Positions 9,637-35,045 of a stretch of DNA of 64,000 nucleotides are shown piece after piece (position 1 is the first letter of the stretch; each line of letters opens with the position of its first letter). The DNA comes from Eledone cirrhosa (lineage: Eukaryota): positions 277,822,001 through 277,886,000 of the forward strand of contig OZ024741.1 in the NCBI GenBank assembly GCA_964016885.1, written 5' to 3'. Under the pieces are notes generated by a model. It was not told the origin of the DNA, searched no databases, and worked only from the letters and a program-made list of their open reading frames with translations. Position numbers and translations under genes: made by a program.

Positions 9637-9714
9637 ATGCTGAAGAGAATCGCATCCAGATTAGTTGTTGCTTTGAAGCCAAGAAAGATGCTGGAAGTAT
9701 TAACAACCAGCGAG
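9637..9714 (+). CDS. PUS1: PUS1 first coding exon (exon starts 9615): MLKRIASRLVVALKPRKMLEVLTTSE
   Basis: Acceptor tttacag at 9614, donor GAG|gtaaga, phase 0 and in frame with the next exon. Second in-frame ATG at 9688. Confidence 0.75.
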
Positions 9715-11009: not shown

Positions 11010-11117
11010 ACTGCTGCTGCTGTGAAACCAGAAACTGATGACAAATCAGCAGTGAAGAGACAACACGATGATAACAACAGTGATGACAGTAACAAAACTC
11101 CTTCAAAGCTTCTTAAA
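11010..11117 (+). CDS. PUS1: PUS1 coding exon 2: TAAAVKPETDDKSAVKRQHDD...SKLLK
   Basis: cag| and |gtaagt boundaries, 108 nt, keeps frame. Confidence 0.8.
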
Positions 11118-11654
11118 GTAAGTATAGTCCAAGGTTAACACCTGCCACCCTGAGTTACCCCACCCCACTCCTCAGAACCACTTCCTTACTCAGTTGGATC
11201 AAGATGAAGATGGCCATCTGCAAGAATGAACCCCCACTAACTTGACTGGCTTTTTCAGCACATCTTTCCTTGTAGTACTAGGAATTCTTTTGTTTGAATC
11301 CTGGGCTAGATTTAAAAAATTATACACACATGCACACATGTATGTGTATGTATATACATATATATATCCCCCCCCCCCCCCACACACACACATATTTGTG
11401 TTTGTGTATATGGCTAACTGAATACACATGCTTTTTCTCAATTTTTTTTTTTCCGTTCTTTCCTCTTACTCTCTATCTTTCTATTTCCTCTTTTATTTCT
11501 CATTCTATCTTTTGATGAAGGACTAGTGTCTGAAACGTTAAGAATCTTTTCTTACTATATCAAGTGTTAAACTGATATATTTCTTCATAGTACTATGTTG
11601 TTTGCTTTGTTGTTTCTGTTTACTTTTTGCATACATATTTCTCTCTATCACCAG

Positions 11655-11749
11655 AAATCTGAGACTAACATTCCTATCCGAACTGATCGGAAGCGTAAAG
11701 TGGCGTTGTTAATGGCGTACTCTGGAGAAGGTTACTATGGCATCCAAGT
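11655..11749 (+). CDS. PUS1: PUS1 coding exon 3: KSETNIPIRTDRKRKVALLMAYSGEGYYGIQ
   Basis: Matches the TruA/Pus1 N-terminal motif KRKxxLLMAYSGxGYxGxQ. AG/GT boundaries. Confidence 0.93.
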
Positions 11750-12050
11750 GTGAGTAGACAGGCTAATAACTCTTTCTTATACATAACAATTTCCATTTCT
11801 TAGAGGGTTCTAAACCCCACTATGAGGTTAAAATTTCTTTAGTCAAAAAATACGGCGAAAGCTTCTATTTCTACTTCTTGTGTTGTTATGACTCAACCAT
11901 CTCATGTTGTTGTTGTTGTTGTGGTTGTGCCGATTGTGATTGTGGAATAAGTGGGCAAAGATAAGATATATTTTGAGATTTATATTATTAATTTTTGTTG
12001 ATTGTTTTCAAATGAAATCTTTACTTTTCTTTCTCCCAAACAACTTTTAG

Positions 12051-12144
12051 TAATTCTGATTTTCCAACAATTGAGAGTGAACTGTTTAAGGCATTAGTTG
12101 CAGTTGGACTGGTACCACAGGATCATGTAGATAACCCTTATAAG
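12051..12144 (+). CDS. PUS1: PUS1 coding exon 4: NSDFPTIESELFKALVAVGLVPQDHVDNPYK
   Basis: TIE..L..AL motif, and the phase matches both flanking exons. Confidence 0.92.
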
Positions 12145-12204
12145 GTAAATGTGTGTTTTTATATATATGTACGTGTATGGCACTCGCTCACTGAAGGGTG
12201 ACGC

Positions 12205-12530
12205 TCTCTCACCACTCAACATCTCCCTGAGCTAAGTCTCACTCTGATCAGGTCACTGCAACATTTCCTTGAGCTGTCTAAGTCTCACTCTGACCAGGTC
12301 ACCGTGTATAGATTCAGGCCATCTCTTACCACTCAGCAGAGACAGGCCTTCTCTTACCACTCAACATTTCCCTGAGCTGTCTAAGTCTCACTCTGATCAG
12401 CTCACTGCAATCAGGGACAGACCCTCTCTTATAGCTCAACATTTCTTTGAGCTAAGTGTTGCTCTGACCAGATCACTGACCAGGCACAGGCACTTTCTTA
12501 CTGCTAAATATCTTCCTGGGTTGTCTCTTA
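12205..12530. repeat. Degenerate tandem repeat
   Basis: Recurring CAACATTTCCCTGAGCT..AAGTCTCACTCTGATCAG.TCACTG. Confidence 0.75.
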
Positions 12531-12868
12531 GTTAATAGTAAATTGGACACAAACTGTGAACAGAGAAGTACACCATTTAAAATCCACATGTGCTTTACCC
12601 ACCCATTTCTCCTCACTTAAACCCGTTTGATAGCAAACTACCTGAAACCACCGTTCCATCATAAATTTGTGAAGAAATGTTTTAAATATCAGCTTACTAG
12701 TGAAAAAATAAGTTATTTTATTTTAAATTCCCCCAAATACTTGATTATTTTCAAAATTAATTACACATAAGTAGTGTATTTCATTAAAAATACAGTAATG
12801 AAAGGGTTAGCTACCCTTATGTTGTTAAACACTAACATCACGTTTTTTTTGTTTGTTTGCTTTCTCAG

Positions 12869-12937
12869 ATGTCATTCCAAAGAGCTGCCCGTACAGACAA
12901 GGGTGTTTCTGCAATGGGACAGGTTGTTTCATTAAAG
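12869..12937 (+). CDS. PUS1: PUS1 coding exon 5 with catalytic motif: MSFQRAARTDKGVSAMGQVVSLK
   Basis: RTDKGVSA motif containing the catalytic Asp of the TruA family. Followed by a non-canonical ATAAGT donor. Confidence 0.95.
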
Positions 12938-14065
12938 ATAAGTATCAGAAACGTCTTATCTTTATTTGTTGTTATTCTTTCCATCATCATTGTTTAACGT
13001 CTGTTTTTCCCCTACTAAGCAAGGGTTTGACGTGTTGTCATAGACCTGCCACCTGTCTGTACTCACATGAAGCCATTGAGCTCCAGGTGTGCTGGGGGAC
13101 ATACATCCCACATACATATATTCCCACGCTCTATCAATTGCTCCAACAGGCCGGGGGCCCGACATATGATCCCACACTTTACAGAGTACATTTTATCGTG
13201 GCATCAACACTAGTGAGGTTGTCATGTCCTTAACACAGCTGAAGACTTGGCATTTTGTTTGATTTTATAGCTTTTATTGTTATTTATTGTTTTACAGTAA
13301 TACTGTAATGAAGGTGTGCAATCTAGTATTTAGTGTTGAACTCAGTATCATAAAGTCGTATGTTCAATTCCTGGACCAAGCTGTGCATTCTGTGCTTGAG
13401 CAGATACTTCATTTCACATTACTTTCCATCATAGAACCGGCACCTCTATCATTAAAAGGCGTGAGAAACCTCCTATGAGATACAACCTCATGAAAGGCCA
13501 GTTAAACCTGCATAAGGTGTGGGCTGTAAATTTAATTTCATTTTGATACTGTTGATGCATGGCTTCTGTAGTTAAGAAGTTTGCTAACCATAAAAAACTT
13601 GCCAAATAGAGGTTTGAGAGCACTTTTCATTTGTGCCAAGAACATGACAACCCTTCCTAGTGTTGGTGACATAATAAAATGCACCTAGTACACTCTGTAA
13701 AGAGGTTGGTGATCGGAAGCACATCCAGATGTAGAAACCTTACAAAACTGGAACCTATGTAAGTGAGGTGTATTTACACTGTAAAGATGTAAGCAGTGGT
13801 TATCTTTCTTCTGAGGATTAAAAAACAATGAAATTTTCGGAAATTTCTAATTAAATTTTAGATGAAATTTTGGTGGAATTTTATATAAAAAATTGTTTTG
13901 AATTTTTCAACGGAATTTTTGGATTGAAGTTTTGAGAAAATTTTTTATGACATTTTTATAAATGTTTTGATGAAATGTTCTGAAAAATTTGAGAAAATTA
14001 ATTTAAGAACTGAATATTTTTTATGAAAACTTGCTTTATTGTTTAATGTTCTTTTTTTTTTCTAC
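12938..14065 (+). other. AT-AC intron with U2-type signals
   Basis: AAG|ATAAGT ... T-tract CTAC|ATG is the only join I found that keeps the frame and the SLK-xxx-L.IDRLN.LP..IRILG sequence. Confidence 0.8.
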
Positions 14066-14135
14066 ATGTTGTTAAATGTTGAGAATTTGATTGATCGACT
14101 CAATGAGACACTTCCAAAACAGATCAGAATCCTTG
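14066..14135 (+). CDS. PUS1: PUS1 coding exon 6: MLLNVENLIDRLNETLPKQIRIL(G)
   Basis: TruA LN..LP..IR motif, donor gtgagt, acceptor AC. Confidence 0.9.
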
Positions 14136-14456
14136 GTGAGTTGTTCTAGTTTTTTTTCTATCCTTGTAATTCTTTTAGGTTATCTTAAATCTATTATCCA
14201 ATAATTCCCCCCCTCTCTCTCTCTCTCCCCTCCTGACCCTTTGTTTGGCAAGCTTTCTACAACTTGGTGACCTCCCTTCACCAATCACTTTACAGAGTGT
14301 ATTGGGTGATTGTTTATCAAGTACATACCATCTACCATATGAAGTGTCACCAATCATTGTATCATCTGATTATACGCAGAGTTGTCATGGAAAATAGATA
14401 TGAAACAAAGATGATGATGATGATGAAAATTTGAGCTGGTAGTGAGTTAACTAATG

Positions 14457-14708
14457 AAGGCACATTGACCTAGTGGTAAGGGTATTGGACTTATGATCAT
14501 AATGTTCAATTCCTTGACTGAGCTGTGTGTGTTGTTCTTAAATAAAACACATCATTTCATGTTGCTCCAGTATACTCAGCTAAAAATGAGTACCAGCAAT
14601 AGCTGAGGATTTAGGCCTGCGATGGACTGGTATCCTGTCCAGAGGGAAGACTTGTTCTCTCAATCACTTCAGGAACCAAGATGAACCTCCAGGCTTGAAA
14701 CGGACTTT
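14457..14708 (+). mobile_element. tRNA-derived SINE family 2 (also at about 17568 and 39990)
   Basis: A-box-like TAGTGGT and B-box-like GTTCAATTCC, with a recurring body GTTGCTCCAGTATACTCAGCT...CCTGCGATGGACTGG. Confidence 0.75.
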
Positions 14709-14769
14709 AGTGAGTCAACTAGTATATCATATTAACCCTAATTAACTCTTATGTATTTCATCTTTGTAG

Positions 14770-14870
14770 GTCTGACACGTACGACAAATTCTTTCAACAG
14801 TAAGAATCATTGTTCCCATCGTACATACATCTATGTTATGCCAACATTTGCTCTGACTCCAGTAGAAGAG
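14770..14870 (+). CDS. PUS1: PUS1 coding exon 7: LTRTTNSFNSKNHCSHRTYIYVMPTFALTPVEE
   Basis: FNSKN.C..RTY.Y motif, AG/GT boundaries. Confidence 0.95.
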
Positions 14871-15734
14871 GTATGTATCTTGATAATTGCTTCTACAATA
14901 ACTTCTCTTTTTCTGTTTCAATAGTTGTTAGTTAAAACCTTTATCACTTCATTACTCTATCTCTAATGAAAGACACAGCCTATGATTTTCAAATAATTTT
15001 TAAAATAATCAAGAATTTGGAAAGATTTAGTAATATAACTAATTTTCTCATTATTTATCTAGTGTTTAGCAGGGTAGTCCTCGATATTTGATGAGATACA
15101 GAGAGCTGTTCATGAAAAAAAATCATCAGGAAAGTCAACTGTCAATACAACCATTTTACAATGGCAGTTGGCTTTCCTGATGATTTCTTTTGAATCAAAT
15201 AGTTGTAGTCCTATAGAAGCCATTTCTATATTACACATGATGTTTACACTCTACTAATGTAGATTACTCACAATTGAACCCGAGACTCACACACACACAT
15301 ATATATAGAGAGTACTCAATACTGAAGTAGAGTTTAAATATTCATTTATTGTGGCCAAGTAGTGAGTCTTGTTACTCCGGAGTTTCACCTGTGCACTCAT
15401 AGGATAGGTGAAACTCCAGAGTAACAAGACTCACTACTTAGCCATAATAAATGAATATATAAATATGCTAGCATGGAAAAATAGACATTAAACGTTGATG
15501 ATATATATATATATTGCTATCAAAGTAAGTGGACATTAAACGATGATGATGATGATATATATATATCATCGTTTAACATCCGTTTTCCCTGCTAACAAGG
15601 GTCAGTCTCCAATATATATATATATATATACATATGTATATATATATGTGTGTGTGTGTGTGTTGTTTTTATCTTGTATGTTTTATTTTTATGTCTAAAT
15701 TCTAATATATTTTGGTTCCTTTCTTCTATTCCAG

Positions 15735-15762
15735 AATGTTGTCTTAGATTATAGAATAGATG
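15735..15762 (+). CDS. PUS1: PUS1 28-nt micro-exon: NVVLDYRID
   Basis: ttccag| and |gtaagt boundaries. It is needed to convert phase 0 to phase 1 and supplies the YR motif. Confidence 0.85.
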
Positions 15763-16040
15763 GTAAGTTACCTGGGTATGTTACCCGTATATCTTTGAAT
15801 TGGAAGTCGGTAATGGTTGTTGTAGTGATAGTAATGATGATGGTGATGATAATGATATTGATTGTATGTTGGTGCAAATGGTGATGATGATGATAATGGC
15901 TGTGGTGCTAGTGATAGGGATGATAGTGAGTGTAGGTAGTGATGGTGATGGTGACGATAGTGGTGGTGGAGGGGTGATAGTAGTGCTGATGTTGATGTTG
16001 ATGATGCCTATCAAAGAATTCCAATTTTTCTATATTTCAG

Positions 16041-16119
16041 AAAGTAGGCTGGAACAACTGAATAAAGTTTTAAGTTTATTTAAAGGAACACATAATTTTC
16101 ATAATTTTACCTCTGGACG
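16041..16119 (+). CDS. PUS1: PUS1 coding exon 9: SRLEQLNKVLSLFKGTHNFHNFTSG
   Basis: GTHNFHNFT signature of Pus1. Confidence 0.96.
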
Positions 16120-16537
16120 GTAAGAAACTCTTTGTCTTCTTTCTTTTTTTCCCATCCTCTCACCCTTTCTCTTCTCATCTCTCTCTCACTTGTCTATCTC
16201 CTCTTACTCTCATTACTTTCGCCCTTTCTCTTCTCTTTCTCACTTGTCTATCTCCTCACAGCCACACAACTTTCACCTTTTCTCCTGTCCCTTCACCTCA
16301 ATCTATTGTTTCTCTTGTCCCTCTCTCTATCTCTTCTCTCTCACTTTCTTTCCTCTCACTTCCCCTTCACATTCAACCACTTTCTCTGCCATTTTTTCTT
16401 TATAAGTTTCTTACTACTACTACTAGTACCATTATCACATGTTGCTACTAATTGTTACTGTATAGTTGATAACATTACTGTTTGTTGCTATTTTCACCTC
16501 TCTTTTCTTTTCTCTCTCTCTCTTCCAATGTATTTAG

Positions 16538-16583
16538 GAAATTTTCTGACCCAAGTGCCAACCGCTACATCATGGAATTTAAG
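16538..16583 (+). CDS. PUS1: PUS1 coding exon 10: KFSDPSANRYIMEFK
   Basis: DPSA.RYI motif, phases fit. Confidence 0.92.
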
Positions 16584-16781
16584 GTAGGTTTCTTTCTCTA
16601 TTGATCTATCGATCTATCTCTATCTACCTTTCTCTCTCTCTCTCTTCAGTAACTGCAAGGAGAAGTATTTCCTCATTGATTATATACCAGTAATATACAT
16701 GGGTTGATTAAATTAATTATACATTCCTCCTCCCTTCCCTCCAAATGATTCACTTTGTGTGTCTCTATATATCTATGCATG

Positions 16782-16942
<161 letters not shown>

Positions 16943-17427
16943 TCATCATCACCATTTTACATCCATTCTTCCACGCTAGCATGGGTTAGACGGGTTGTCC
17001 TGTTGTGGGCAGTGTACAATCGGCTGCCCTTGTCTTGCTCATACTGGAACTGATTCTGGCTTGATTACTACAGCTGGATGCCCTTCCTAACACCAACCTC
17101 ATTTACAGTGAGTGCTGGCTGCTTTTTTGTCGTGGCACCTCCACGTCCACTTTGCAGTGGGAGGGTGTGGGGTCATATTGTCTATATGCTTCAGCTTTGG
17201 CTTGTACCCATGGGGGGGGGGGTCTTCTGTATTACTGCGTGATGCCAGAGGTCATGGTCGTGTATCATCACCTTTGAGAGGTGTAATATAATGTGTGTGT
17301 CTCTCACTCACTCACTCTCTATCTATCCATCCATCTCTATCTCTCTAATTCTATTTACCTACCTATCTATGTATATCTTGCTATCTATATATCTATGTTT
17401 CTCTATCTGTCTACCTATCTATCACAG

Positions 17428-17521
17428 GCAGGTAAACCAGTGGTCATTGATGGTCTGGAGTTGGTCACTATCAAGATTCAGGGTCAAAGTTTCATGTTGC
17501 ATCACATTCGTAAAATGATAG
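17428..17521 (+). CDS. PUS1: PUS1 coding exon 11: AGKPVVIDGLELVTIKIQGQSFMLHHIRKMI
   Basis: GQSFMLHxIRKM motif. Confidence 0.96.
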
Positions 17522-18487
17522 GTATGTCAAATACTATATAATTACATGTAATATAAATACAAATGTGGAGGCATATGGCTTAGTGGTAAGGGTGTTGGAC
17601 TTATGATAATGACGTTGGCTTTATTCCTGGACTGGGTTGTGTGTTGTGTTCATTTCATTTCACAGTGTTCCACTGTACTCTGCTGAAAATGAGTACCTTC
17701 AATACCTGGGATTTACTCCTGCCGTGGACCAGTGTTCTGTCCAGGGGAAAGTCTTGTATTCTCAGTCACTTAACACCACAGAAACAAGGATAAGCACAAG
17801 GCTGATGAGCCTCCGGGCTCAAGACAGACTTTACATTTTAGAATATAAATACAAAGTAAATGTGGTGAAAAACTGGAGACTACAGTGTTTGGCACATGGT
17901 TAATGTAAGGTCTGAGAAGACTCTTCAATTTGGCCTAGCATCTAACAACTTCCCTAGTGCCAGTGCCATGAAATAACACACCCAATAAGTACATCCTGTA
18001 CAGTGTTAGTGTTGGTACCATGAAAACTTGTACTTAGTATATCCTGTAAAGTGTTGATATTGGTGCCATGAAAAAATGTACTCAGTACACTCTGTAAAGT
18101 GGTAGCATAGTTCCATGATAAAAATGCATCATATAAGGTGGTTGGCATTAGGAAGGACATCCAGCCATAGAAACCATGCCAAATATGGAACATATGAGCA
18201 AGACAGGTTAATCCAGCCAAACATGGTAACAAAAGTGTTCAAGTGTTTATATTTATGTAAAAACCTTCCATGTAAGAACCTTCGATAATTCCAAACACCA
18301 ACTTAATAGTGAGAAAGTTAGTTATATTACTGAATCCTAAATTCTTGATTATTTTCATGATTTATTGAAATATATCAAGTGTATTTCATTAGACATATAG
18401 CAATGAAAAGGTTAATTTGCCACTCCAGAATTTTGAACACTCCATCACCATATTGACTTAACATTGATTTCCTCTTGTATTATCCAG

Positions 18488-18558
18488 GTTTATCAATCGC
18501 CATTGTTCGAGGATTTTGTGGAACAGATGTCATTGATCTATCATGGAAAGCTGAGAAA
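18488..18558 (+). CDS. PUS1: PUS1 coding exon 12: LSIAIVRGFCGTDVIDLSWKAEK
   Basis: AG/GT boundaries, in frame, Pus1-like AIVRG...SW. Confidence 0.9.
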
Positions 18559-20003
18559 GTAAGTTATGCTTGTTGTTGTTGTTGTTTAGACTCAAGTCAG
18601 CCCCTTGATTGAGCAGATATCTCATCAAAGGTGTTCCAACCATGACCATCCCATTATTTTTGTATATCAGGGACTACACTGTTCATTGTAGCTGTCCTTT
18701 CTATTTATTTGTTTATAAAAATGCACCCGGCCTACCCTGTAAAGTGATAGTGCTGGTGCTATGATAAAAATGCACCCAGCCCACAGTATCTTTACTAGTG
18801 GACAAATCATGAAAATTAACAATATTAGAGTAAAGATTTTTATTTTTAATACAATGTAGTCATAGTGCCTGTTCTGTAATTTTAAAGAATGTTTTGCTAA
18901 TGTGGTACAGAACAGCCTACTTGCTATATTAAAATGTATTTGGCTGAGTATACCATGGACATGTTTACATACTTTTAAAGTCATTCTTGGGAAAATTAGT
19001 CCTTTGAATCACAGGTACAGTCCATCTGGCAGGCTTCCACATAGTTTCTGTCTACACAATTTCAGTCACAAGACTCTGACAAAAGATGCCACATGATGGG
19101 GTCAAACCCATTACCTCATAATTCCAAAGCATACTTCTTAACCATTTGATCATGCTGCATCTATGGGTATGGGAGGAAAATGCATAGAAATAAAGGAGAA
19201 CATTTTTTTTAGTGAAATTTTGTATATTTGAATGTTAGTGTTGGATTAAATACTTTGGTATTTATTTAGGTTTTCTATGCTCAGTGCTCTATTCCCTCTG
19301 AGGTTAACTTTGCTTTTCATCCTTTTGTGATTGATAAATGAAAGCAGCAGTCCAGAGGATGGTGGATTGGTAGAATTGCTAAAGAGACAGATGTGATGCT
19401 TTGCAATCTCTTCCAGTCCTGTGTGTGTTCTGAGTTCAAATCTTACTGCCTGTCACCAGAAAAGTGGTGACACTTTTGCCAGTGATTGCCACTGACAGAT
19501 AGTATCAGCAATGAAAAGACAAATGGAAACACTATTTCATTGGTTTGATCTGACAATCGGCTCCTATCTTCTTTCATTTTCCATGCTAGCATGGGTTAGA
19601 CGATGTGCGTGTACAAAAAGTAAACAGAAATAACAAAGCAAACAACACAGTACAATGAAGAAATATATTAGTTGAATGCTTGATATTATAGGAAAAGATT
19701 CTTTACGGTTCAGACACTAGTCCTTCATCAGAAGATAGAATGAGAAATAAAAGATACAATAGAAAGATAGAGTGAGAAGAGAAACTTTTTTTTTTTTAAA
19801 CCCTGTGTATTTAGTCAGCCATTTCATGTGTTTGTGTGTCTGTACATATGAACATAGCTTCCTATAGGACTTACCACTGGCAGATAGTATTAGCAATGGA
19901 AAGACAAATGGAAACATTGTTTCCTTAGTCTGATCTGACAATGTTCTTTTCCTTGCCTTTCTTTGATTGAATTGTTAAAATATTTTCTAATTTTCCTTTA
20001 CAG

Positions 20004-20048
20004 GTGGATGTTCCCAAAGCACCTGGACTGGGCCTTGTTTTAGAGAGG
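20004..20048 (+). CDS. PUS1: PUS1 coding exon 13: VDVPKAPGLGLVLER
   Basis: PKAPGLGL.L motif. Confidence 0.95.
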
Positions 20049-20967
20049 GTACAGTAAAGATTTTATTGGATATTTTTATATTTCTTGCTTGTTTCTTTCC
20101 AGTTATTTTGTGGAAGTGTGTACATTAGGAAAAAATATCAATAAAACAATAGTAATATATTTCACTATAAATATTAATTGAGAAAATCAGGTAAAATACA
20201 CCTGGTGACAGAAGTGATTGACTTATATTATGGTCATTTGTCTTGGGATACACACATTTCAAATTTTCCCAATGCTCCTGGATCCTTTAGCGTTTACATT
20301 ACTCTATATTTACTATTGAATTTTCACAGTAAACACTTTATCTCACATAATATCGAATCTACGAGATTTTGATATTATTTATTTTGAGAACAATACTTTC
20401 ACATAAGTATGAGCAACCAGTTTGAACAGAAAGAGGTGAGAGAATTCTGGCTGGATATGGCCAGTTTAAATGTTAAAGGGTTAAGTCAGCCGCTTTGTAA
20501 ATAAAAATAACCATGGTTTTTAATGTAAATAGAAGACAAACATTTTAGAGAGTCAGGTGTAATTGATGATACTTTGGTGTTTGGATGTATAACATTGGTC
20601 AGTGAATTTAGGGACCTCATGTGATGCGTGTACACAGTGTATGGCTGTGTAACATTGGTCATTGAATTTAGGGGACTACGTGGGATGTGTGTGTAACATG
20701 GTGTGGCTCAGCTACACAGTCAGTAAATGTAGATGATTACATGTAATGTATGTGACTGTTACACAGGCAGTAAATGTAGGGGACTACATATAATGTGTGT
20801 ACACAGTGATAGTATGTTGTGTTACATAGTCATATATTGAGATGTGAACCACTGGAGTTGAATGTCTGATGAAACAATGAAGAGTGTAATGTCTGAAACA
20901 CTGATGTGATGTAATGTTTGATGAAACTGGTATAATTTAATATCCTGTCTTGTCATCTTTCTTTCAG

Positions 20968-21042
20968 TTACATTATAATGGTTACAATAAACGGTTTGGT
21001 AATGATGGCATCCATGAACCTTTAGTGTGGGATAAATATGAT
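20968..21042 (+). CDS. PUS1: PUS1 coding exon 14: LHYNGYNKRFGNDGIHEPLVWDKYD
   Basis: YN.RFGNDG.HEPL.W motif of animal PUS1. Confidence 0.95.
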
Positions 21043-21739
21043 GTAAGTATGACCTTAATGTAATGTTATTGACCCTTGTAATTATTATAACATCAGCTTA
21101 ATAATGAGACAGTTATGTCATCATCATCATCATCATCATACATCCACTTTCCTCACTGGCATGGGTTGGAAAGGTGGCCCCAGTCCAAAGCCAGATGGGT
21201 TGGAACAACCTTATCTCACTCGTACATTCCAGGATGCCCTTCCTAATACCAACCACCCTGCAGGGTCTACAGGATGCTTTTTTTTCATGATACCACCACT
21301 GACTGTTACTTTACAAAGTGTAGTGGGAGGATTGGCTGCATTTTATTGTGGCACCATCTCTAGAGTAGTGTTATGGGATTGGATCCAAGGCCTCACAACC
21401 CTCTCCAACACCTTATAGCCAGCAGCATTGACCCTTTGGAAGAAGTGGAGAAGCATAACCATTGGAACATCATTAGGGTCTCTACATAACCATCTGTCAT
21501 ATGTTTGTCTAGATTGAAGAGTCCTGTCAAACTCTGTATTGTCTCTATTCAATTGTATTCAATGCAGTAGAAATATATAAAGGGCAAAGGATGACAAATA
21601 AAACAAAACAAAGCAATGTTTTTCTTACCCAGTATAGTTTCCTTGGTCCAATCTGACAATCTCACCCACCACCACACACACACACCTTTTTTTTTTTTTG
21701 TAATATTTTGTTGTTTATATTCCCTGTGTTGTGTTTCAG

Positions 21740-21810
21740 GAGCAAATGGAGAAGTTTAAAGAAGAATATATCATGAAAAACATTGTGGAAAAGGAGAAGG
21801 AGGAGAAATC
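21740..21810 (+). CDS. PUS1: PUS1 coding exon 15: EQMEKFKEEYIMKNIVEKEKEEK(S)
   Basis: FKEE.I motif. Ends in phase 2 at a U12-type donor. Confidence 0.92.
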
Positions 21811-21819
21811 GTATCCTTT
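21811..21819 (+). promoter_or_regulatory. U12-type (minor spliceosome) 5' splice site GTATCCTTT
   Basis: Exact match to the RTATCCTTT consensus at the exon end. Confidence 0.92.
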
Positions 21820-22751
21820 GACATCTTTGGTTTGAATGGTGACTAAAATATAGGCATCATCATTGAGTTGAATAAGTCGTTACAGGCCAGGTCACTATGT
21901 AATCAGTCACTGTCCTCTTAGATGAGCCAGTGGCTATGTTTGAGTTGAGGGTTACATCTGAGCTAGGGGGCTCATATCTCACATACATTACCAACTACTT
22001 TACAGAGTGTACTGGGTGTAATTTTTGTGACACCAGCACTAAGGAGGTTGCCAAGTCTTTGATACAAATGAAAACCCATGCTAGCGTGGAAGATGGACGT
22101 TAAACGAAGATGATGATGAAGTCCTCTTAACTCTTTGTTTGATATGGTTTCTACATCTAGATGCCCTTACTAGTGCCAATTCCTTTACAGAGTGTACTGG
22201 GTGCATTTTAATTAGGTACCAGCACTAGAAAAACCTCTCATTAAAATGTTATAATGATGATGATGATATAAAGTAGTTGATGAAAAAGAGTGTCCCTAGT
22301 GGTTGTTGTTCAATCTAATTGAACCTTTACTAGGAAGCTGACTTATTAATTACATTCCAGTAAAATATCTAGAACTTCATTGTTCTTTCTGACACATGAC
22401 CTGTGAGGAATAACAGTTAAGTCTCCCTCATATCACACCTTACTGTCTTAAAATATCAGATGCCACCTCAGTTTTTTTTGCAGGATGATTTTTTGGGTGT
22501 AGTTCATTGTGTATAGTGGGTGAGTAAGGGAGATAACTCTACTGGCAGCATGTCCAATAATCATATTGAGCAAATCCTTTTGTATTTTTCTTAACAACAC
22601 TTGGAAAGAAAATTTTTCACAAATTACTGAGAAATATTTGACAGAAAAATCAATAGTATAATGGGTGACAGCTTATATTCGAGGTCAATATTTTGCCGAT
22701 TTTCACCGACTTCAAATTCTGTATAAATAAGTTGCTAAAATATTTTCGCTT

Positions 22752-24236
22752 TGGAGGTGAATATTACACTAGTTTCACTTTGTTTATGAATATTACACTG
22801 GTTTTACTTTGTGGTGAATATTACACCAGTTTCACTTTGGTGGTGAATATTACACTGGTTTCACTTTGGTGGTGAATATTACACAGGTTTTACTTTGGAG
22901 GTGAATATTACACTGGTTTCATTTTATAGGTGAATATTACACTGGTTTCATTTTATAGGTGAATATTACACAGGTTTTACTTTGGTGGTGAATATTACAC
23001 TGGTTTTACTTTGGAGGTGAATATTACACTGGTTTTACTTTGGAGGTGAATATTACACCAGTTTCACTTTGGTGGTGAATATTACACTGGTTTTACTTTG
23101 GTGGTGAATATTACACAGGTTTTACTTTGGAGGTGAATATTACACAGGTTTTACTTTGGTGGTGAATATTACACTGGTTTTACTTTGGTGGTGAATATTA
23201 CACAGGTTTTACTTTGGAGGTGAATATTACACTGGTTTTACTTTGGTGGTGAATATTACACAGGTTTCACTTTGGTGGTGAATATTACACAGGTTTCACT
23301 TTGGTGGTGAATATTACGCAGGTTTCACTTTGGTGGTGAATATTACACTGATTTCATTTTATAGGTGAATATTACACTGGTTTCATTTTATAGGTGAATA
23401 TTACACAGGTTTTACTTTGGAGGTGAATATTACACAGGTTTTACTTTGGAGGTGAATATTACACTGGTTTTACTTTGGAAGTGAATATTACACTGGTTTT
23501 ACTTTGGAAGTGAATATTACACTGGTTTTACTTTGGAAGTGAATATTACACCAGTTTCACTTTGGTGGTGACTATTACACTGGTTTTACTTCGGTGGTGA
23601 ATATTACACGGGTTTTACTTTGGAGGTAAATATTACACTGGTTTTACTTTGGAAGTGAATATTACACTGGTTTTACTTTGGAAGTGAATATTACACCAGT
23701 TTCACTTTGGAGGTGAATATTACACTGGTTTTACTTCGGTGGTGAATATTACACGGGTTTTACTTTGGAGGTAAATATTACACTGGTTTTACTTTGGAAG
23801 TGAATATTACACTGGTTTTACTTTGGAAGTGACTATACACAGGTTTTACTTTGGAGGTAAATATTACACTGGTTTTACTTTGGAAGTGAATATTACACTA
23901 GTTTCACTTCGGTGGTGAATATTACACAGGTTTCACTTTGGAAGTGAATATTACACTGGTTTTACTTTGGAAGTGAATATTACACTGGTTTTACTTTGGA
24001 AGTGACTATACACAGGTTTTACTTTGGAAGTGAATATTACACTGGTTTTACTTTGGAGGTAAATATTACACTAGTTTCACTTCGGTGGTGAATATTACAC
24101 TGATTTCATTTTATAGGTGAATATACACAGGTTTTACTTTGGAGGTGAATATTACACTGATTTTATTTTGGTGGTGAATATTACACCGGTTTCACTTTGG
24201 AGGTGAATATTACACTGGATTCAGTTTGGTGGTGAA
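22752..24236. repeat. 29-bp minisatellite, about 50 copies (GGWGGTGAATATTACACTGGTTTTACTTT)
   Basis: Directly visible tandem array with point variants and no spacers. Confidence 0.97.
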
Positions 24237-24519
24237 ATTTGTTTTTCATATTGTTTTTGATGTTTTGAGTGAATATGGCCTTCGAAACGACCAGAAATCA
24301 ACAAAAAAATCATTACATAATGAAGTTGTGAAACAAAAACTATACTCTAAACCAGGGGTTCTCAACCTTTTTTTTGCTGTGGACCACCAAAATAAGTAAT
24401 TTTTGCCTGTGGACCACCTAAATTTTAAATCTTTTGTAATAGAACTGCTAGAGACATTCTAACCACATGCCCATAGTATCAGAGCTGTGAACTCGAAATT
24501 TTCAAATATAATGGACACG

Positions 24520-24880
24520 TAGATTAGAGAGAAACGAAGCCTGCATGCTCCGATGGATGTGTAACAGTAATATACGTGAACGACAAAGCATAAAGGAATT
24601 GAGAGAGAGACTGAGCATAAGAGGAATCAAATGCTGCGTGCAGGAGAGGCGGTTACGCTGGTATGGACATGTGATGCGTATGAAGGATGACAGCTGCATA
24701 AAAAGGTGCAGAGCACTAGAAGTTGATGGAAACTGCGGAGTGGGGAGACCCAAGATGACTTGGGATGAGGTGATAAAAGCCGACCTTACCCAACTACACC
24801 TCTCAAAGTCAATGACACACGACCGTGACTTCTGGCGTCACGCAGTAATACAGGGTACCCGACCTCCCATGGGTACATGC
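24520..24880 (+). mobile_element. RTE-clade LINE 3' fragment
   Basis: RRLRWYGHVMRM...GRPKMTW C-terminal motif typical of RTE ORFs. Confidence 0.9.
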
Positions 24881-25452
24881 TGAAGCATATAAACAATATC
24901 TTCTTAAATATGTTCTCCACTCATGAGAATTTCAAAACTGCATCATCTAAACATAATTTGTTGATTAGCTTCCTCAGCTTATACACAGGGTTTGGATTTT
25001 TGCCTATTTCTCAGACATATAAGGGAGGGGGTGATTATATTCAAGTATATATGGTAATTTCTGTATTTGCTGGCATTGTGGTGTGTCTCAATTTTGAGTT
25101 GCTAAATTGTGAAAATTTAAGTTTAGGCTTATGAATAAACTAATGTTCGGCCTTCAAGACACAAGGTAAATCTTCCAAGCTTTTTTTTTTTCAAGTGGTG
25201 GGGGGGGGGGGGGGGGTACTGTCTTCCTCACTGGGAAATATGGTGGGTTTTGTTAGCAACACAAAACTAATAAATATACAATCAACCCTAACATAGAACC
25301 TTCCTCATAACTGACTCACATGTGTGTCGGTATGTATGTGTCTGTATATCTGTGCCTCAATATGTGTGTGTATCTGCCTGAATGTACGTGTGTCTGTGGT
25401 GCAATGTTTAGTTACTGAATTAGTCCATCTTTTCTCCTATTAGTATATTATA

Positions 25453-25461
25453 TTCCTTAAC
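25453..25461 (+). promoter_or_regulatory. U12 branch point A (TTCCTTAAC)
   Basis: Perfect consensus, with the AG ending at 25476. Confidence 0.88.
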
Positions 25462-25476
25462 TCTATATTCTCTCAG

Positions 25477-25621
25477 CCTCTTCAAGTGGTTGCCCTGCCT
25501 CCACCACAATGTATACAAGGCCCACCCAGGGCCCATAGCTCGCACATCTCGACTACATTACACCATGCGGAAACTGAAAAAGATAGAACAAGCAGAATTA
25601 GATGTTGCACAGCCAGCTTAG
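25477..25621 (+). CDS. PUS1: PUS1 alternative terminal exon A: LFKWLPCLHHNVYKAHPGPIARTSRLHYTMRKLKKIEQAELDVAQPA*
   Basis: Phase-2 compatible open frame with a WL..LH motif. AATAAA at about 25763. Confidence 0.78.
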
Positions 25622-26651
25622 ATAGAGGCAGAGAGAAGGGGAGAGGTAGATAGAAGGGTTTAACATTACCCCCACCTGGTTTAGCACTATCCTCACCTTC
25701 TCTCCTCCCAACTGTCTCTCAGGAGCCCTGGATAGGGTCAAAAGCATTCTTTTTCCCTCCTGAATAAACAAAAAAAAAAAAACATGAGTGATGCCCCCTA
25801 AGATAGATATATGTTGTTTTTGTCATCACTATATTCCTAATGATAGACACTGCCTGTGTTTTTTAAATAATTTTGAAAATAATCAAGATTTTGGAGGGAT
25901 TTAATAATATAACTTTCTCGTTATCAGGCTTGTGTTTGGAGCATAACGTAACAGGTTCTTAGATATATATATAACAGTTTAAAACAAATAGTGTTGGATC
26001 ATAGAATTGGGCTGTGTTAGGTGGCTTGTTGTGAAAAGTGTTAAGATCGAATGGAGAGAGAAATGACCAGCAAACACAACTATAACAAAATCAATCAGAA
26101 CTAGACTTAACAATCAACCGGACAAAATTTTGTGTTGTTAATAAATATTGATTGTTTTATTTTTATATACTTTTTCTTAGTATCTTATTTTTATTATTGT
26201 TATTACCATATCAGTATAGCATCAGACAAAATGCTTCACAGCACAAAGTTATGGCTCTTTACATTCTGAGTTCAAATCCCGCTGAGGTTAGCTTTGCCTT
26301 TCATCCTTCCAGAATTGATGAAATAATGTACCAATAATGCACTGGAGTTGATTTAATTGACTTACCCCTCCCCGAAAATTATTGGCCTTGTGCCTAAATC
26401 AGAAACCACTATTTTTACAATTATTTTAATTCAATAGTGTTTGTCTTATGAGATGTTGATATGTGACTGTTGGCAATTAACACTTAGCATTAACAAACGT
26501 GTATATGTTTCTTTGTGTGTTTGCATGCCTAAGTGCTGAAGATTAGGTCACAATTTTGATCCCTCTTACAGTCTGGTGATATGGTTAGTACTGGACCTTG
26601 AAACCTTAGGTAGTGCTTTTGTTCCATGTATGAGCATAAATAGATTATATA

Positions 26652-26797
26652 TATATTGATTTCTTTATTAGCCACAAAGGCGCAACAAGAAAGGGGACAA
26701 TACAAAGACATGCCGGGGATTTTACATACAGTCGTGTAAAAAATATAAAAACAAACAATTTCAACAATCGAAATCCCCAATAGGGGGGAGGCGCCAC
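26652..26797 (-). mobile_element. Short 3' end copy of the same Tx1-like LINE family
   Basis: The reverse complement resembles 34883-35040 (CCCCCTA.TGGGGAT ... TGTATTGTCCC ... TGTGGC.AATAAAGAAA). Confidence 0.75.
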
Positions 26798-28173
26798 AAA
26801 TATATATATTATCTATATACATGTATATGAATGTGTGTTTGTGTGTATGCATGCATATATATGTGTGTGTGTGTGCGTGTTCATGTGATTTACTCAGTAA
26901 AAGTTTGATTGTAAAAATGAAGGCAGTAAACTTGAGGATTCTAATTGTGACATTGATCATACAAGTGTAACACACTCTCTCATAATCCTCCTGGTATTTA
27001 CAAGGAACAACTGCAGCATGTTACACAATACAGCCACCACAAAACAGAGCTAGGAAAATACTAGCAGACAATACATCCATATTATAAAGAATTCCCCACA
27101 AAAATAATCAGTTAATGATGGAAGCAATACTCATATCACAATACAATGCTAAAATATACACAGAAACAACATACCATGTGTAATAAACCAAACAATTAAA
27201 CTTCAGGATCCAAATTCTGGCAATAAAAACAACATATATTCTGGCAATGGAATTTTCATAAATTACAAAGAGGTAGTAAAAGAAAAAAAAAGTTACCAAC
27301 ACTTTACATCCTGATGATGAGACTGTCAAAATCTAAAAACATTGATTTAGGAACCTTGTTGTTCCAAACAAGTTGCAAGGTAGTATCAGAAATTTGTTCG
27401 ACCAGGTTTTAAAAAATGTGCACCAGTATTCAGTTTCCAATAAATGATGAATTTTTAGATATTATTTATATTGAAGCCATATTCCTTTCAAAATAGTCTT
27501 CATTGGAACATACGCAGCATGTCTTCCACACCTCTGATGCACCACAGAAGATATTCTTTAAAAGTACAAAACAGCTCTATGATTGTATCCCATTAAAAAA
27601 TGGGTCTTTGCTACAAGGGTCTAGTCATCTTCATTATTATCACTGTTTAACGTCCATTTTTCCATTCTAGCATGGGTTAGATGAGTTGTCCTTTTGTGAG
27701 ACAAGTCAGATCTATCAAGTGACCATGTCTTGTTCATACAAAACTGTTTCTGGTTTGGTTTCTGTAGATGGATACCCTTCTTAACACCAACCCCATTTAC
27801 AGCATTGATTAGGCGCTTTTTATCATGGCACCAAAACGACCAACTGACAGGTTGGACTAGGTGATTTTTGTTGTGTCACCAACACACATGGCCACTTTAC
27901 AGAGTGGACTTGGTGCTTTTTCATCATGTCACCAACACGACCACCTTACAGAGTGGGCCAGGTGCTTTTTGGTGTGTCACCAACACCTTATAGTAGTAGA
28001 TTAGTCAAGCTTCATGCAAAATTTGATATAGAGCATGTTGCTCAAAATGTTCAGACATTGTAAAGATCACAATTTTTCTAATATGATACAAAGACTATCT
28101 GTAGCAACTGTCTTTTGAAATATTTTTCTTTCTTTCCTTTTTTTTCTTTGTTTGTTTAATTTATCATCTTAAA

Positions 28174-28182
28174 TTCCTTAAG
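28174..28182 (+). promoter_or_regulatory. U12-like branch point B (TTCCTTAAG)
   Basis: 8/9 match to the consensus, with the AG ending at 28192. Confidence 0.75.
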
Positions 28183-28192
28183 AAGCTTCTAG

Positions 28193-28325
28193 AATGCTCA
28201 ATTGGCTTGTGACATTACACAACCACACATTTGGCTATGTGGATGAGGAAGGTGAAAGACAACCTACAGGTGCCTGTGTAGCACAGATGAAGCTGAAGAA
28301 AGCAGAAAAGGAATCTCTGAATAAT
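28193..28325 (+). CDS. PUS1: PUS1 alternative exon B: MLNWLVTLHNHTFGYVDEEGERQPTGACVAQMKLKKAEKESLNN
   Basis: Phase-2 compatible. SM..WL.TL..H.F resembles the vertebrate PUS1 C-terminal helix as I recall it. Donor gtaagt at 28326. Confidence 0.85.
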
Positions 28326-28814
28326 GTAAGTTAATAATTGAAAATTTACAATCTTCAACGTATTTTTTATACTATGAAAAATAGTCCAACAAATTGAAAA
28401 AAAAGTTGACAGCATCGCAGATGTGAGTTCACATCCCACGGGTAACACTGTCAACTTTTTTCCATTCAGAGGCTTTTATGGCTAATTTGTTAAACTGCTT
28501 TTCATAGTCTAAAAAATATTTTAACCCTTTAGCATTTAAACTGGCCATGTCCGGCCAGAATTCTCTTACCTCTTTATGTTCAAACTGGCCATAACTGGCC
28601 CCACTTACCAACTTTAAGGTATTATTCTCAAAATAAATATCAAAATCTCATAGATTCCATATTATGTGAGATAAAGCCTTTACTATGAAAATACAATAGT
28701 AAATATAGAGTAGTGTAAATGCTAAAGAGTTAAAACTTCTAAATGTTCAATATATACATATCTGCTCAATGTTTCTAAAAGGTTCTTCAACTAGGCAGTA
28801 AATTAGCAGTGTTG

Positions 28815-29640
28815 TTAGAGAATAGGACAAACTGCCGGGAAATGGCCATGCTCAGTGTGTAGGAAAGGCGTAGGTAGAAACTCCATTTTATGTCCCAAAT
28901 GGAAAGTATGGGTGCATAAAAGATGTAGTGGGATCACAGGTAAGCTAACTAAGAACACAGATTTTACATGTGGCCGGTGCTCTGGTGCAATAAGTAGCAG
29001 CAAGTGCCCACAAAATACTAGCTCTTTCAACTGCGCAGAGGGTTCTATAGAAATAGTGGATAGCTTCCGTTACCTGGGTGACAAAATCAGCAGTGGGGGA
29101 GGGTGCTCCGAAAGTACAGTAGCTAGAGTCAGAACTGGATGGAAAAAGTTCAGAGAGCTTATACCACTATTAGCCGCTAAAGGGTTCTCCCTAAAAGTGA
29201 AAGGCAGGTTGTATGATGCCTGCATACGAACAGCAATGTTGCATGGCAGTGAGACCTGGGCATTGTGTGCAGAGGATATATGCAGACTAGAGAGGAATGA
29301 AGCTTGCATGCTCCGCTGGATGTGTAATAGTAATATACGTGAACGGCAAAGCATAAACGAACTAAGGAAAAAATTAGAAATAAGAGGGATCAGATGTTGT
29401 TTACTCGAGAGAAGGCTACGTTGGTATGGTCACGTGATGCGCATGAAAGACGACAGCTGTATAACAAAGTGCAGGGCAATAAAGATAGATGGTAGCCACG
29501 GAGTAGGCAGACCCAGAAAAACCTGGGACGAGCTGATAAATTCCGACCTCACACACACCTCTCCAAGACAATGTCACTGGACCGAGAGCTTTGGCGGTAC
29601 TCAGTAATAGAGAAGACCCGCGTTACCTAAATACAAAGTA
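28815..29640 (+). mobile_element. RTE-clade LINE fragment with Cys-rich insert, same family as 24520-24880
   Basis: 250-aa ORF with FRYLG, LHGSETW, RLRWYGHV and GRPRKTW motifs. Confidence 0.92.
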
Positions 29641-30899
29641 AAACCTACTACAGTCAGTAGGCATCTCTAACAAAATACACTCCCGTCCCACCACCCCCAC
29701 CCCATCCACACCGCTTCTTTCAATGTAAAGTTATGTTGGTGCCACAAAATCCAGGCCGAAACAAATGAGATCGTGTAGGTGTCACGACAAAAAAACACAC
29801 AGTCCACGCTGTAATGTGACCGTGTAGGCAACACGGTAAAAACGTCCCAGTCCCACACTGTAAATGTGGTTGGTGTTAGGAAGGGCATCCAGCTGTAGAA
29901 AACCTGCCAGACAGTCCACGCTGTAATGTGGCCGTGTAGGCAACACAGTAAAAACCTCCCAGCCCCAAACTGTAAATGTGGTTGGTGTTAGGAAGGGCAT
30001 CCAACTGTAGAAAACTCGCCAGACAGTCCTATGCGAGCAAGACAACCACTCTTGCCTCAAGTGGGAAAACTCCCGTCCAAACCCATGCAAGCATGGAACA
30101 CGGACGTTAAACGATGATGATGATGATGCCTTATTGTATTTGATCCCACTGTCTTTGATCTGAGTTTAAATCCTACAGAAGTCAACTTTGCCTCAGGGTT
30201 GAAAAAATAAAGTCCAAGGCAATATATTGAGGGAATTGTGTGATATGTTTTGTTGTATCTGTTGCAGTTATTTGCATTCTGAAGTCAAGTCCTTCTGTGG
30301 TTCATTTGGATGATAGACTTAATCTGTTGCTCAGTTTAATACTACCTCTTGGTCCTTAGTTACCCATAGCAGAATCTACTCTGCTATAAGGTAAGTATTC
30401 AGGCCAGGTGTCTAGTTTAAGGATATCTCCTTTCCTTCCTCCCACTAGTCTTGGAGGCCCTGAAAAGGGTCATAAGCACTGCCCTTCGCTCTATGACTAA
30501 ACAGTACAAACAAATCATCTTTATGATTGTCATCACTGGCCTCTATCACCTTCAAATTTGCAGCTCACATTTATCTGGTCTCCTACGAGGTTGTATCTCA
30601 TAGAATGTTTCTTGGTTGTTTTAATGATAGGGCGCCCCAGTCCTGTCACGAAAAGTAATATGAAATGAAGTGCCTTGCTTAAAAACCTGATAGTGCTGTC
30701 TGGTCCTGGAATCAAATCCTCAATCTCATGATCCCGAGTCCAACATCCTATCCATTGGGTCACTCACCTTCACTCTACCTTCACGTTTGTAAAAAGTTTG
30801 AGATGAAAGGGATGATGATATATGCTCATCATCACCCCCCCCCCCCCCCATAGAATGTCATCTTAATTACATTTTAAATATGTTGGTAATGTTCTTCAG

Positions 30900-31106
30900 G
30901 CACCAGCAGAAGCTAACGAAAATACTGTGACCAACACAACCAGCAGTGATGTAACAGATACTACTACTACTACTACAGACCATACTGCCACCTCTACTAC
31001 TACTACTACTGCAATCGCCACTGATACCATGGAAACTACTACAGCCACCACCACCACCACTGAAGATGATAAAGTTGTGGAAAAAGTTGCTACATCGGTC
31101 CAATAA
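30900..31106 (+). CDS. PUS1: PUS1 terminal exon for isoform B: Thr-rich acidic tail APAEANENTVTN...EDDKVVEKVATSVQ*
   Basis: ttcttcag| acceptor, phase 0, 69 open codons including the stop. AATAAA at about 31128. Confidence 0.7.
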   Translation, partial: APAEANENTVTNTTSSDVTDTTTTTTDHTATSTTTTTAIATDTMETTTATTTTTEDDKVVEKVATSVQ

Positions 31107-31675
31107 GGAAGCTTCCATAACAATAATAATAAATGTGTCTAACATGGGCACAAGGCCAGCAATTTTTGGAGAAGTGGGGGAAAAAATCAATCATATCAAC
31201 CTTAATACTTGATTGGTATTTTATTTCATAAACGTCAGAAGGATAAAAAAAGGTCAATAAAGTAAAGTATCAATCAAGTACTGTAATCGATTTAATTGAC
31301 CTTTCCTCCTCCTAAAACTGTTGACCGTGTACCTCAGTTAGAACCACAATTTTTAAAAAATTATCATAATAATAAAAAATAATAATAATGGTGATGATGG
31401 TGGTTTGTAAAAAGAATTACACCAAAATATCAAAACAAAAATAACAAAATTTTAAAAAATTAAAAAATTGTTTTTAAAAATTATTTTCTTTGTTAATTTT
31501 GAGAACTTTTGTGGTAAACGATGGGGCTGGTTATAGTTTGTAGTTCTATAAGAGGTTTAGTGAGATAAAAGGTGTATGACCTGTGGGGCTAGCCCCCACA
31601 TTGGTGTGGTTGATGTGTCTCAGTTTAAACAGTTATTGATCTTCAAACATCTTTCTAATTAAATACACTGCCCAT

Positions 31676-34600: not shown

Positions 34601-35045
34601 GGTCTCTGGCCTGGCAGTGCTACTGAGGAGCTCTACCAGTTCGAGGCAAAATCTACAAGCACGGACGCCCTGGCAGAGATCCTGCCAAAAGGACCTGTCC
34701 AAGATGCAAGCAGGACATCGAAAGGTGGGTGAATGTGGCGAAAATGCCCCGGGTGAATGGGCCTTCTCTGTATATAAACCTGTAGGTTGAGGAAGATAAA
34801 CAGAGGGAAGACAGGAACACCTACAAAACATGTTCCTGATGTTGAGGGTTCTTCTATCCATGGGGTGTAAAACAACCCAGTAGCGTTACCCCCGCCCCCC
34901 TAATGGGGATATTAATTGTTATATTTTTATATAGTTTATTGTTATTTATCATTGTTAAAGATTTTATATAAAACCCCCGCCGTCACGTCTTGTATTGTCC
35001 CATTTTTGTACACCCCTGTGGCAAATAAAGAAAGATATATATATA
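31676..35045 (+). mobile_element. Degraded Tx1/L1-clade LINE (APE endonuclease + reverse transcriptase)
   Basis: ORF2 starts MATIQARCLNVRGL at 31842, with GDWN, SYLD, DH, YWKLN, KAFDRV, RQG.PLS and AYADD motifs split by frameshifts and stops. Ends in AATAAA plus (TA)n. The 5' boundary is approximate. Confidence 0.92.

Follow-up and report, generated by a model that had tools for sequence, protein, structure and literature searches.

For U12-type introns, alternative splicing has been described as almost absent, and alternative U12 acceptors have been doubted to be more than errors (2012 review, PMC3584512). Among the described systems closest to the locus analysed here, the JNK genes (MAPK8/9, exons 6a/6b) and TMEM87a/b (exons 11/11a) carry, in the passages that describe them (PMC8329584, PMC1874599, PMC6717393), an alternative exon pair beside a U12 intron, only one exon of which is included; a pair of U12 donors interlocks with a pair of U2 acceptors, a minor-class splice site is present twice, and both exons are internal. 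A different solution is found in the nested intron of SRSF10 (poly(A) exon 3) and in the prospero twintron, where, according to the relevant part of PMC8329584, a U12 intron encloses an exon that carries a poly(A) signal and yields a shorter protein, the short form being made by the major spliceosome, so that the two spliceosomes compete. Duplicated human exons can also be kept apart by splice-site class: U2/U12 incompatibility accounts for 5 of 629 clusters of mutually exclusive exons in the portion of PMC5740500 that treats them, which covers internal human exons and sets terminal ones aside.

The PUS1 gene of Eledone cirrhosa, which lies in a 64,000-nucleotide stretch of contig OZ024741.1 (hereafter the window), is the mirror image of the JNK and TMEM87 arrangement. 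Here too a minor-class splice site occurs twice and an alternative exon pair stands beside a U12 intron; in contrast to those genes, a single U12 donor is followed by two acceptors of U12 type, and the upstream exon of the pair (exon A) is terminal, with its own stop codon and poly(A) signal. PUS1 thus works similarly to that group without being a member of it. As in SRSF10 and prospero, an exon with a poly(A) signal sits within a U12 intron and shortens the protein, but both PUS1 forms appear to depend on the U12 donor, and inner and outer exon (exon B) are homologous, the inner one being conserved. The likeness to the human U2/U12 clusters lies in the separation of duplicated exons by splice-site class, although exon A, being terminal, falls outside the kind of exon they cover. 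Judged from sequence, the arrangement does not look like a U12-versus-U2 switch, because both routes likely need U11/U12; the cephalopod pair is an alternative last exon within a minor intron. The initial annotation had proposed mutually exclusive isoforms, and this holds insofar as both exons are used and conserved, but not in the sense of a classical internal exclusive pair. Our literature search returned no description of a two-exon PUS1 arrangement, and the five human pairs, as presented in the part of PMC5740500 concerned, might include a case in which the U12 donor lies upstream of the pair. NALCN and exon 37 of CaV2 were considered as precedents and set aside, the passages retrieved on them giving no tie to a duplicated U12 acceptor. 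Human and mouse PUS1 had no match in minor-intron gene tables (eight files), in which the MAPK9 control was present.

Table 1. Features of the PUS1 locus, in window coordinates.
Feature	Position	Strand	Description
PUS1 shared coding exons 1-15	9637..21810	+	ATG 9637; TruA-type catalytic domain; last codon split at TC
Intron 5	12938..14065	+	AT-AC ends, major-type donor AAG|ATAAGT; frame depends on it
U12-type donor GTATCCTTT	21811..21819	+	start of PUS1 intron 15; phase 2; matches RTATCCTT
29-bp tandem array, 51 copies	22749..24236	+	within minor intron; no role shown
Acceptor A	25453..25476	+	U12 branch site TTCCTTAAC at 25453, 9/9; AG ends 25476
Exon A, coding part	25477..25621	+	47 aa, stop TAG; terminal, without downstream donor; orthologues P0004, P0006, P0131
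Exon A, 3' UTR	25622..26145	+	AATAAA at 25763 (then 13 genomic A) and at 26140
Acceptor B	28174..28192	+	U12 branch site TTCCTTAAG at 28174, 8/9; AG ends 28192
Exon B	28193..28325	+	44 aa, internal; then major donor GTAAGT; ancestral-type sequence kept; orthologues P0005, P0007, P0127
Last exon of isoform B	30900..31353	+	Thr-rich acidic tail, stop ends 31106; 3' UTR

The shared exons encode a recognizable PUS1, with 93.7% core identity to the Octopus sinensis protein, an intact RTDK motif, a PseudoU_synth_1 domain and the PUS1 fold (domain and fold tested on O. sinensis orthologues); Pfam PF01416 was likewise detected on orthologues. An O. sinensis orthologue matches PUS1 of the TruA family (PDB 4iqm, 4nz6, 9h51) at a sequence E of 8e-110, and fold comparison with these structures gives a Z of 42.5 and an rmsd of 1.5 Å over 312 aligned residues. 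No second PUS1 locus or stray exon copy was found in the genome, where one PUS1 exon used as query had a single match. Gene models of 16 and 17 exons, each with a single stop, give 422 and 487 aa, the sizes first proposed for a basic and an acidic isoform, but only if intron 5 is taken as AT-AC, which appears the best reading among 26 in-frame canonical options when set against three orthologues. The tail charges agree, with 8 K/R and 3 D/E in the 47-residue tail of isoform A, and 7 K/R and 17 D/E in the 112 residues of exon B plus the last exon.

Among the 16 donors of the gene, that of intron 15, annotated from the outset as a perfect U12 site and found as such, pairs most strongly with the 5' end of the genome's U11, at -6.6 kcal/mol against -5.0 for the runner-up; it pairs with U6atac as well. 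Genes for minor-spliceosome snRNAs are present in the genome: U12 (128 bits), U11 in two copies, and U6atac with 15 matches. No exon was linked to the window's remaining RTATCCTT sites.

Both acceptors carry the U12-like branch points proposed for them, of the TCCTTRAC kind, and the frame left open at the phase-2 codon TC| runs on into each exon. At acceptor A the branch adenosine lies 16-17 nt from the intron end, beyond the 11-13 nt optimum for U12 branch-to-acceptor spacing (PMC3584512), with the AG being the first after the branch site; the branch site forms a -10.0 kcal/mol duplex with the genome's own U12 RNA. [quoted passage not shown] The corresponding adenosine of acceptor B is 11-12 nt from the intron end, behind a mixed spacer, and the duplex is -7.4 kcal/mol. 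A search of 21811-28192 for TTCCTTRAN followed by 8-18 nt and AG returned exactly two matches, both at the starts of exons A and B; among 1000 first-order simulations, 14 had two matches anywhere and 850 had none. Exon A also has the stop and AATAAA attributed to it, together with a second AATAAA.

Spliced assemblies enter both exons. In sequencing run X1, contig 1 begins exactly at 25477 and contig 4 exactly at 28193, each preceded by 30 letters from outside the stretch, the pattern that two routes out of a common upstream exon would produce; we infer the donor-side junctions 21810>25477 and 21810>28193. Contig 4 further contains the joint 28325>30900 with GT..AG ends, bearing out the predicted splice from exon B to the Thr-rich last exon. 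On the exon A side, one contig ends at 25782, inside a genomic A-run and hence at no more than a candidate cleavage site, and a second reaches 26137. X1 is a single run from the same study as DNA-like runs, and is taken as RNA because of its exact GT-AG joint and intron-free contigs; run X2 passes both acceptors without a break. Contig depth in X1 is lower for exon A (6.6 versus 55.7), a poor gauge of expression. A search of sequencing runs with exon A found no holder recorded as RNA, and a word search with exon B gave no match, though protein P0005 carries exon B, so that such blanks weigh little.

Both tails are conserved. O. sinensis RefSeq holds the two forms as computed models (isoform X2, 420 aa, with A; isoform X1, 487 aa, with B), and the sole Octopus bimaculoides member of the cluster carries the A tail, so A need not be minor everywhere. 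In a more distant lineage, which shows 78% identity in the core and is probably squid or cuttlefish, B is carried by 8 of the 9 cluster members and A by one; the A protein (P0131) and B protein (P0127) of this lineage share an identical N-terminus. Between the window and this lineage A is conserved like B (20/35 versus 17/35), and the four A tails available, from three octopod species and the distant lineage, have 16 of 47 columns invariant; in each the frame is open and the length much alike. Rather than a single junction beside an unconserved or frame-broken exon, we thus find both acceptors entered in X1 and both tails conserved.

The proposal that the U12 acceptor was copied along in an ancient tandem duplication is supported as well. 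Direct similarity between exons A and B is weak (32% identity, E 0.004); in the peptide alignment first drawn, W4, L5, L8, H9 and R22 do match gap-free, but KLKK is offset by one residue (32 versus 33), and R22 is absent from Octopus A tails. Among exon peptides, A clusters with A and B lies nearer to B. A profile built from 115 of 118 non-cephalopod tails (training range 31.5-49.3 bits) scores exon B at 38.0 bits and exon A at 8.4, ranks 1 and 2 among the window's 7645 AG sites, with the next at -4.3. By this measure of their sequences, exons A and B both descend from a single ancestral PUS1 exon. One animal metagenome locus (L026) has a U12 donor, GTATCCTT, at the same split Ser, with one acceptor and one exon; it alone has an intron at that codon among 80 loci kept from 530 relatives, and most loci gave one unbroken match. 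Of the 16 non-cephalopod clusters that were inspected, 15 showed a single tail version (P0035 and P0060 clusters left out, the oyster cluster covered by 15 of 96 members), and isoforms from Branchiostoma, Ylistrum, Haliotis, Aplysia and others showed no difference at the duplicated exon. Mytilus appears to have duplicated the same exon independently, and its pair may be of the human U2/U12-incompatible kind; as the exon-peptide tree has no starred branch, it is from pairwise identity that the Mytilus duplication is judged independent. An A-tail profile run against 1.84 billion representatives, a search that A forms within B-represented clusters would escape, matched only P0004 and two repeat proteins, P0157 (ten matched stretches) and P0158 (TPR-rich), rejected as chance matches.

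Taking the single U12 donor and its two duplicated acceptor exons together, we consider it reasonably probable that the choice is set mainly by RNA cleavage at the exon A poly(A) site before exon B becomes usable. Before octopods and the distant lineage parted, a tandem duplication of the exon behind an ancient U12 intron would have taken the branch site along, and the upstream copy would then have lost its donor to become a last exon. On uncut RNA exon B would be preferred, because its branch spacing is optimal and the downstream GTAAGT permits exon definition; flanking U2 introns are known to enhance U12 splicing (PMC3584512). Exon A combines the stronger branch site with a longer spacing and lacks a donor; it would prevail chiefly on transcripts cleaved at 25763 or 26140, where cutting removes exon B. 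Were exon A spliced without cleavage, its stop would lie 2.7 kb ahead of a later junction and the product would likely be an NMD target.

Alternatively, the two branch sites might compete directly for U11/U12 under the guidance of splicing factors, in the manner of JNK exon 6a/6b, with polyadenylation at A following the splicing choice; this is possible though on balance unlikely. For MAPK8/9 and TMEM87, the part of PMC8329584 concerned reports a tissue-specific choice near minor introns, and exon A has the stronger U12 duplex and is transcribed first, yet it is apparently the rarer form; nor is docker/selector RNA pairing convincing, the inverted repeats being short and 70-92% complementary. 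The A/B ratio might instead sense minor-spliceosome activity, with slow U12 splicing allowing more time for the poly(A) site of exon A, which lies within the 6.4-kb U12 intron of isoform B; low U11, U12 or U6atac would then favour the short basic PUS1 and alter pseudouridylation. [quoted passage not shown] Least probable is that exon A is a tolerated remnant of the duplication, spliced at a low rate and with no role of its own: its depth in X1, its presence in one of nine distant-cluster members and a profile score far below the training range fit such a remnant, but the invariant columns, open frame and similar length of the four A tails, and an identity to the distant lineage at least equal to that of exon B, argue against it.

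The pair offers a natural test of acceptor selection by U11/U12 and of its competition with polyadenylation. Two U12-type acceptors kilobases apart, both with conserved coding exons, contrast with the view of the 2012 review (PMC3584512). An exon behind a U12 intron could be primed for lasting duplication, because splicing of a U12 acceptor copy to a major donor would not be easy, and with the second duplication in Mytilus one can test whether exons are more readily duplicated at minor introns. A joint reading, which we offer as speculation and think improbable, would have the PUS1 exon duplicated and kept twice independently in molluscs for this reason, as a last-exon pair in cephalopods and an internal pair in mussels, with the speed of the cephalopod minor spliceosome setting which C-terminal helix PUS1 carries, which would couple the pseudouridylation of tRNA and mRNA to minor splicing.

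At the protein level, the catalytic core is predicted to remain in both isoforms, along with the last helix of PUS1 and one extra helix; isoform A would end short and basic, and isoform B would add a long acidic tail, for which disorder is predicted in an orthologue. The switch point coincides with the last of the PUS1 C-terminal helices, which passages of PMC3983220 and PMC12710931 associate with the monomeric state and with how the RNA is oriented, and two natural tails at this position could reveal the role of the region. The predicted difference likely tunes RNA affinity, turnover or location rather than catalysis. The extra helix, predicted at 399-416, lies outside the part aligned to human structures.

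The gene at this locus is PUS1, whose 15 common exons run from an ATG at 9637 to a split codon ending at 21810, with the U12-type donor GTATCCTTT directly after it. All coordinates of the initial annotation were confirmed in the sequence, and the frames of the exon models reproduce the isoform sizes of about 422 and 487 aa that it had put forward. Elsewhere in the gene, the frame stays open only if intron 5 has AT-AC ends and a major-type donor, a reading that came top of 26 in-frame canonical options scored against three orthologues; a U12 branch site is absent from this intron, which is possibly a converted minor intron. Two in-frame ATGs enclose a basic leader, with and without which many relatives are found. 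Human PUS1 yields mitochondrial and nuclear forms from alternative start ATGs; if the starts work likewise here, two starts and two tails would give up to four forms.

Features of the PUS1 locus and its surroundings (window coordinates)
Feature	Position	Strand	Description
In-frame ATGs M1, M18	9637-9714		basic leader between
PUS1 intron 5	12938-14065		AT-AC ends, major-type donor AAG/ATAAGT, T-rich tract
Exon A	25477-25621		exons 1-15 + A in frame, 422 aa
Exon B + last exon	28193-28325 + 30900-31106		exons 1-15 + both in frame, 487 aa
Broken non-LTR retrotransposon-like stretch	about 31840-34900		downstream of PUS1; judged by eye
NOP14	39703 onward	+	next gene on this strand after PUS1; Pfam Nop14

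Across the 6.4 kb from donor to exon B, a branch site coupled to an AG is present at exons A and B only, and two such matches anywhere in this span arose in 14 of 1000 simulations. The best U11 pairing among the gene's 16 donors belongs to the U12-type donor before A and B, and the genome encodes U11, U12 and U6atac genes (15 U6atac-like matches, most of them probably pseudogenes, vs one for U12 and two for U11). Predicted pairing with U12 is -10.0 kcal/mol at the branch site of A and -7.4 kcal/mol at that of B; the spacing from branch point to acceptor is 16-17 nt for A and 11-12 nt for B.

Exon usage was sought in four sequencing runs, all from one study and none recorded as RNA, two of which (X1 and X2) were compared with positions 25000-31400. 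X2 behaves as DNA, its contigs continuing across both acceptors. X1 behaves as spliced RNA: the window match of one contig (depth 55.7) begins exactly at 28193 and joins 28325 to 30900 at GT..AG, and that of a second (depth 6.6) begins exactly at 25477. Both carry 30 leading letters from off this stretch, as expected of a 31-mer graph at a fork from one common upstream exon. Of the junctions proposed initially, the acceptors at 25477 and 28193 and the 28325-30900 joint are thus seen, and we infer the donor side, the exon ending at 21810 having lain outside the compared stretch. The A contig ends at 25782, within 13 consecutive genomic A shortly past an AATAAA at 25763, and a thin X1 contig extends to 26137, just short of an AATAAA at 26140. 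The lower contig depth of A is no more than a hint that it is the minor form. We regard it as highly probable that both exons are genuine and in use.

Both exons are also conserved in Octopus and in a more distant lineage. Octopus sinensis RefSeq includes both isoforms as unremarked models, tail A in the 420-aa XP_029645099 and tail B in the 487-aa XP_029645097; the sole O. bimaculoides member of the cluster has tail A. Nine assembly proteins with 78% core identity to the window form a fully supported sister to octopods, a tree position from which we take them to be squid or cuttlefish; eight carry tail B and one tail A, and the A-form P0131 and B-form P0127 have a common N-terminus. Identity to this lineage is 20/35 residues for tail A and 17/35 for tail B, so that A is no less conserved than B, and 16 columns are invariant across four A tails. 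This argues against exon A being debris, and its survival as a neutral remnant is very improbable.

How A or B is chosen is a separate matter. Both routes most likely use U11/U12, so that the choice is probably not one between spliceosomes. PMC3584512 gives 11-13 nt as the optimal branch-to-acceptor spacing and reports that flanking U2 introns enhance U12 splicing; B combines optimal spacing with a strong downstream donor. Exon A has no downstream donor and so cannot be spliced to B. Were A used uncleaved, 2704 nt would separate its stop from the next junction, and by the standard rule for such stops the RNA would be a likely NMD target. Together these points favor cleavage at exon A's poly(A) site, which we consider the probable main determinant. 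Factor-driven competition between branch sites is an unlikelier way of setting the ratio. More doubtful still is that the ratio serves as a sensor of minor-spliceosome activity.

The PUS1 fold is present in predicted models of both O. sinensis forms (Z 42.5 to 4iqm), and in each the alternative part is predicted to form one helix starting at residue 373 and a second at 399-416 (pLDDT near 74), beyond which tail B has about 65 further, disordered residues. By sequence and structure mapping, the switch point corresponds to about human residue 386, and so falls in the C-terminal helices that the available portions of PMC3983220 and PMC12710931 tie to the monomeric state and RNA orientation. According to the former, fragment 83-394, which had both ends removed and not the C-terminus alone, kept RNA binding and was less active on tRNA (0.08 vs 0.46 mol/mol). 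We predict that basic tail A and acidic tail B may differ in affinity, turnover or location.

The tandem duplication proposed initially is borne out. With a tail profile built on 115 of 118 non-cephalopod tails, B comes first and A second among 7645 AG sites, indicating that both derive from the ancestral exon; the window's A has diverged, scoring 8.4 bits where the training tails span 31.5-49.3, and distant-lineage A scores 33.1. Among 80 metagenome loci examined for an intron at the split codon, one on an animal-like contig (L026:2017-2223), with a compact PUS1 gene, has a 207-nt phase 2 intron that interrupts the same serine codon and combines GTATCCTT with a U12-like branch site and a single acceptor, indicating that the U12 intron predates the duplication. 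The minor-intron tables searched list neither human nor mouse PUS1. Three assembly proteins (P0057, P0073, P0082) end exactly at the split codon, suggesting that another group of animals may have the same intron, perhaps with a GTAA-type donor, and retain it.

Of the 16 multi-member non-cephalopod clusters inspected, one has two versions of the switch exon, that of Mytilus californianus, whose X1 and X2 proteins (P0050 and P0146, each of 493 aa) show 13 differences, all in residues 370-400; the segment starts just past the split point and the sequences rejoin downstream. The two match each other at 25/38 residues and cephalopod A or B at 10-15, suggesting an independent duplication, likely an internal exon pair of equal lengths; no branch of the exon tree is starred. 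Two further mussel proteins, P0144 and P0147, bear on this two-version exon.

Minor-intron alternatives in the available text of PMC8329584, PMC1874599 and PMC6717393 are JNK, TMEM87, prospero and SRSF10. JNK and TMEM87 combine two U12 donors with two U2 acceptors; in prospero and SRSF10, U2 and U12 introns are nested. The PUS1 locus is the mirror image of these cases, to which it adds an alternative last exon. A human precedent is possible among the five exon clusters described as U2/U12-incompatible in the accessible part of PMC5740500. The literature compared, mostly as titles and abstract openings, with subscription papers largely outside its scope, includes excerpts of PMC6259924, PMC3557258, PMC10639083 and PMC12149502, and in it no report of cephalopod PUS1 isoforms or duplicated U12 acceptors was found. 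We regard the locus as a real and conserved variant of minor-intron alternative splicing, new against this literature.

Fragments akin to the non-LTR-like stretch are found around 24550-24900 and 28800-29620, and those in the second interval are high-copy in the runs. In the window, GTATCCTTT also occurs at 54297 and 58362, neither tied to an exon, and at 36893, upstream of NOP14, where it could be a minor donor in the 5' UTR of that gene.
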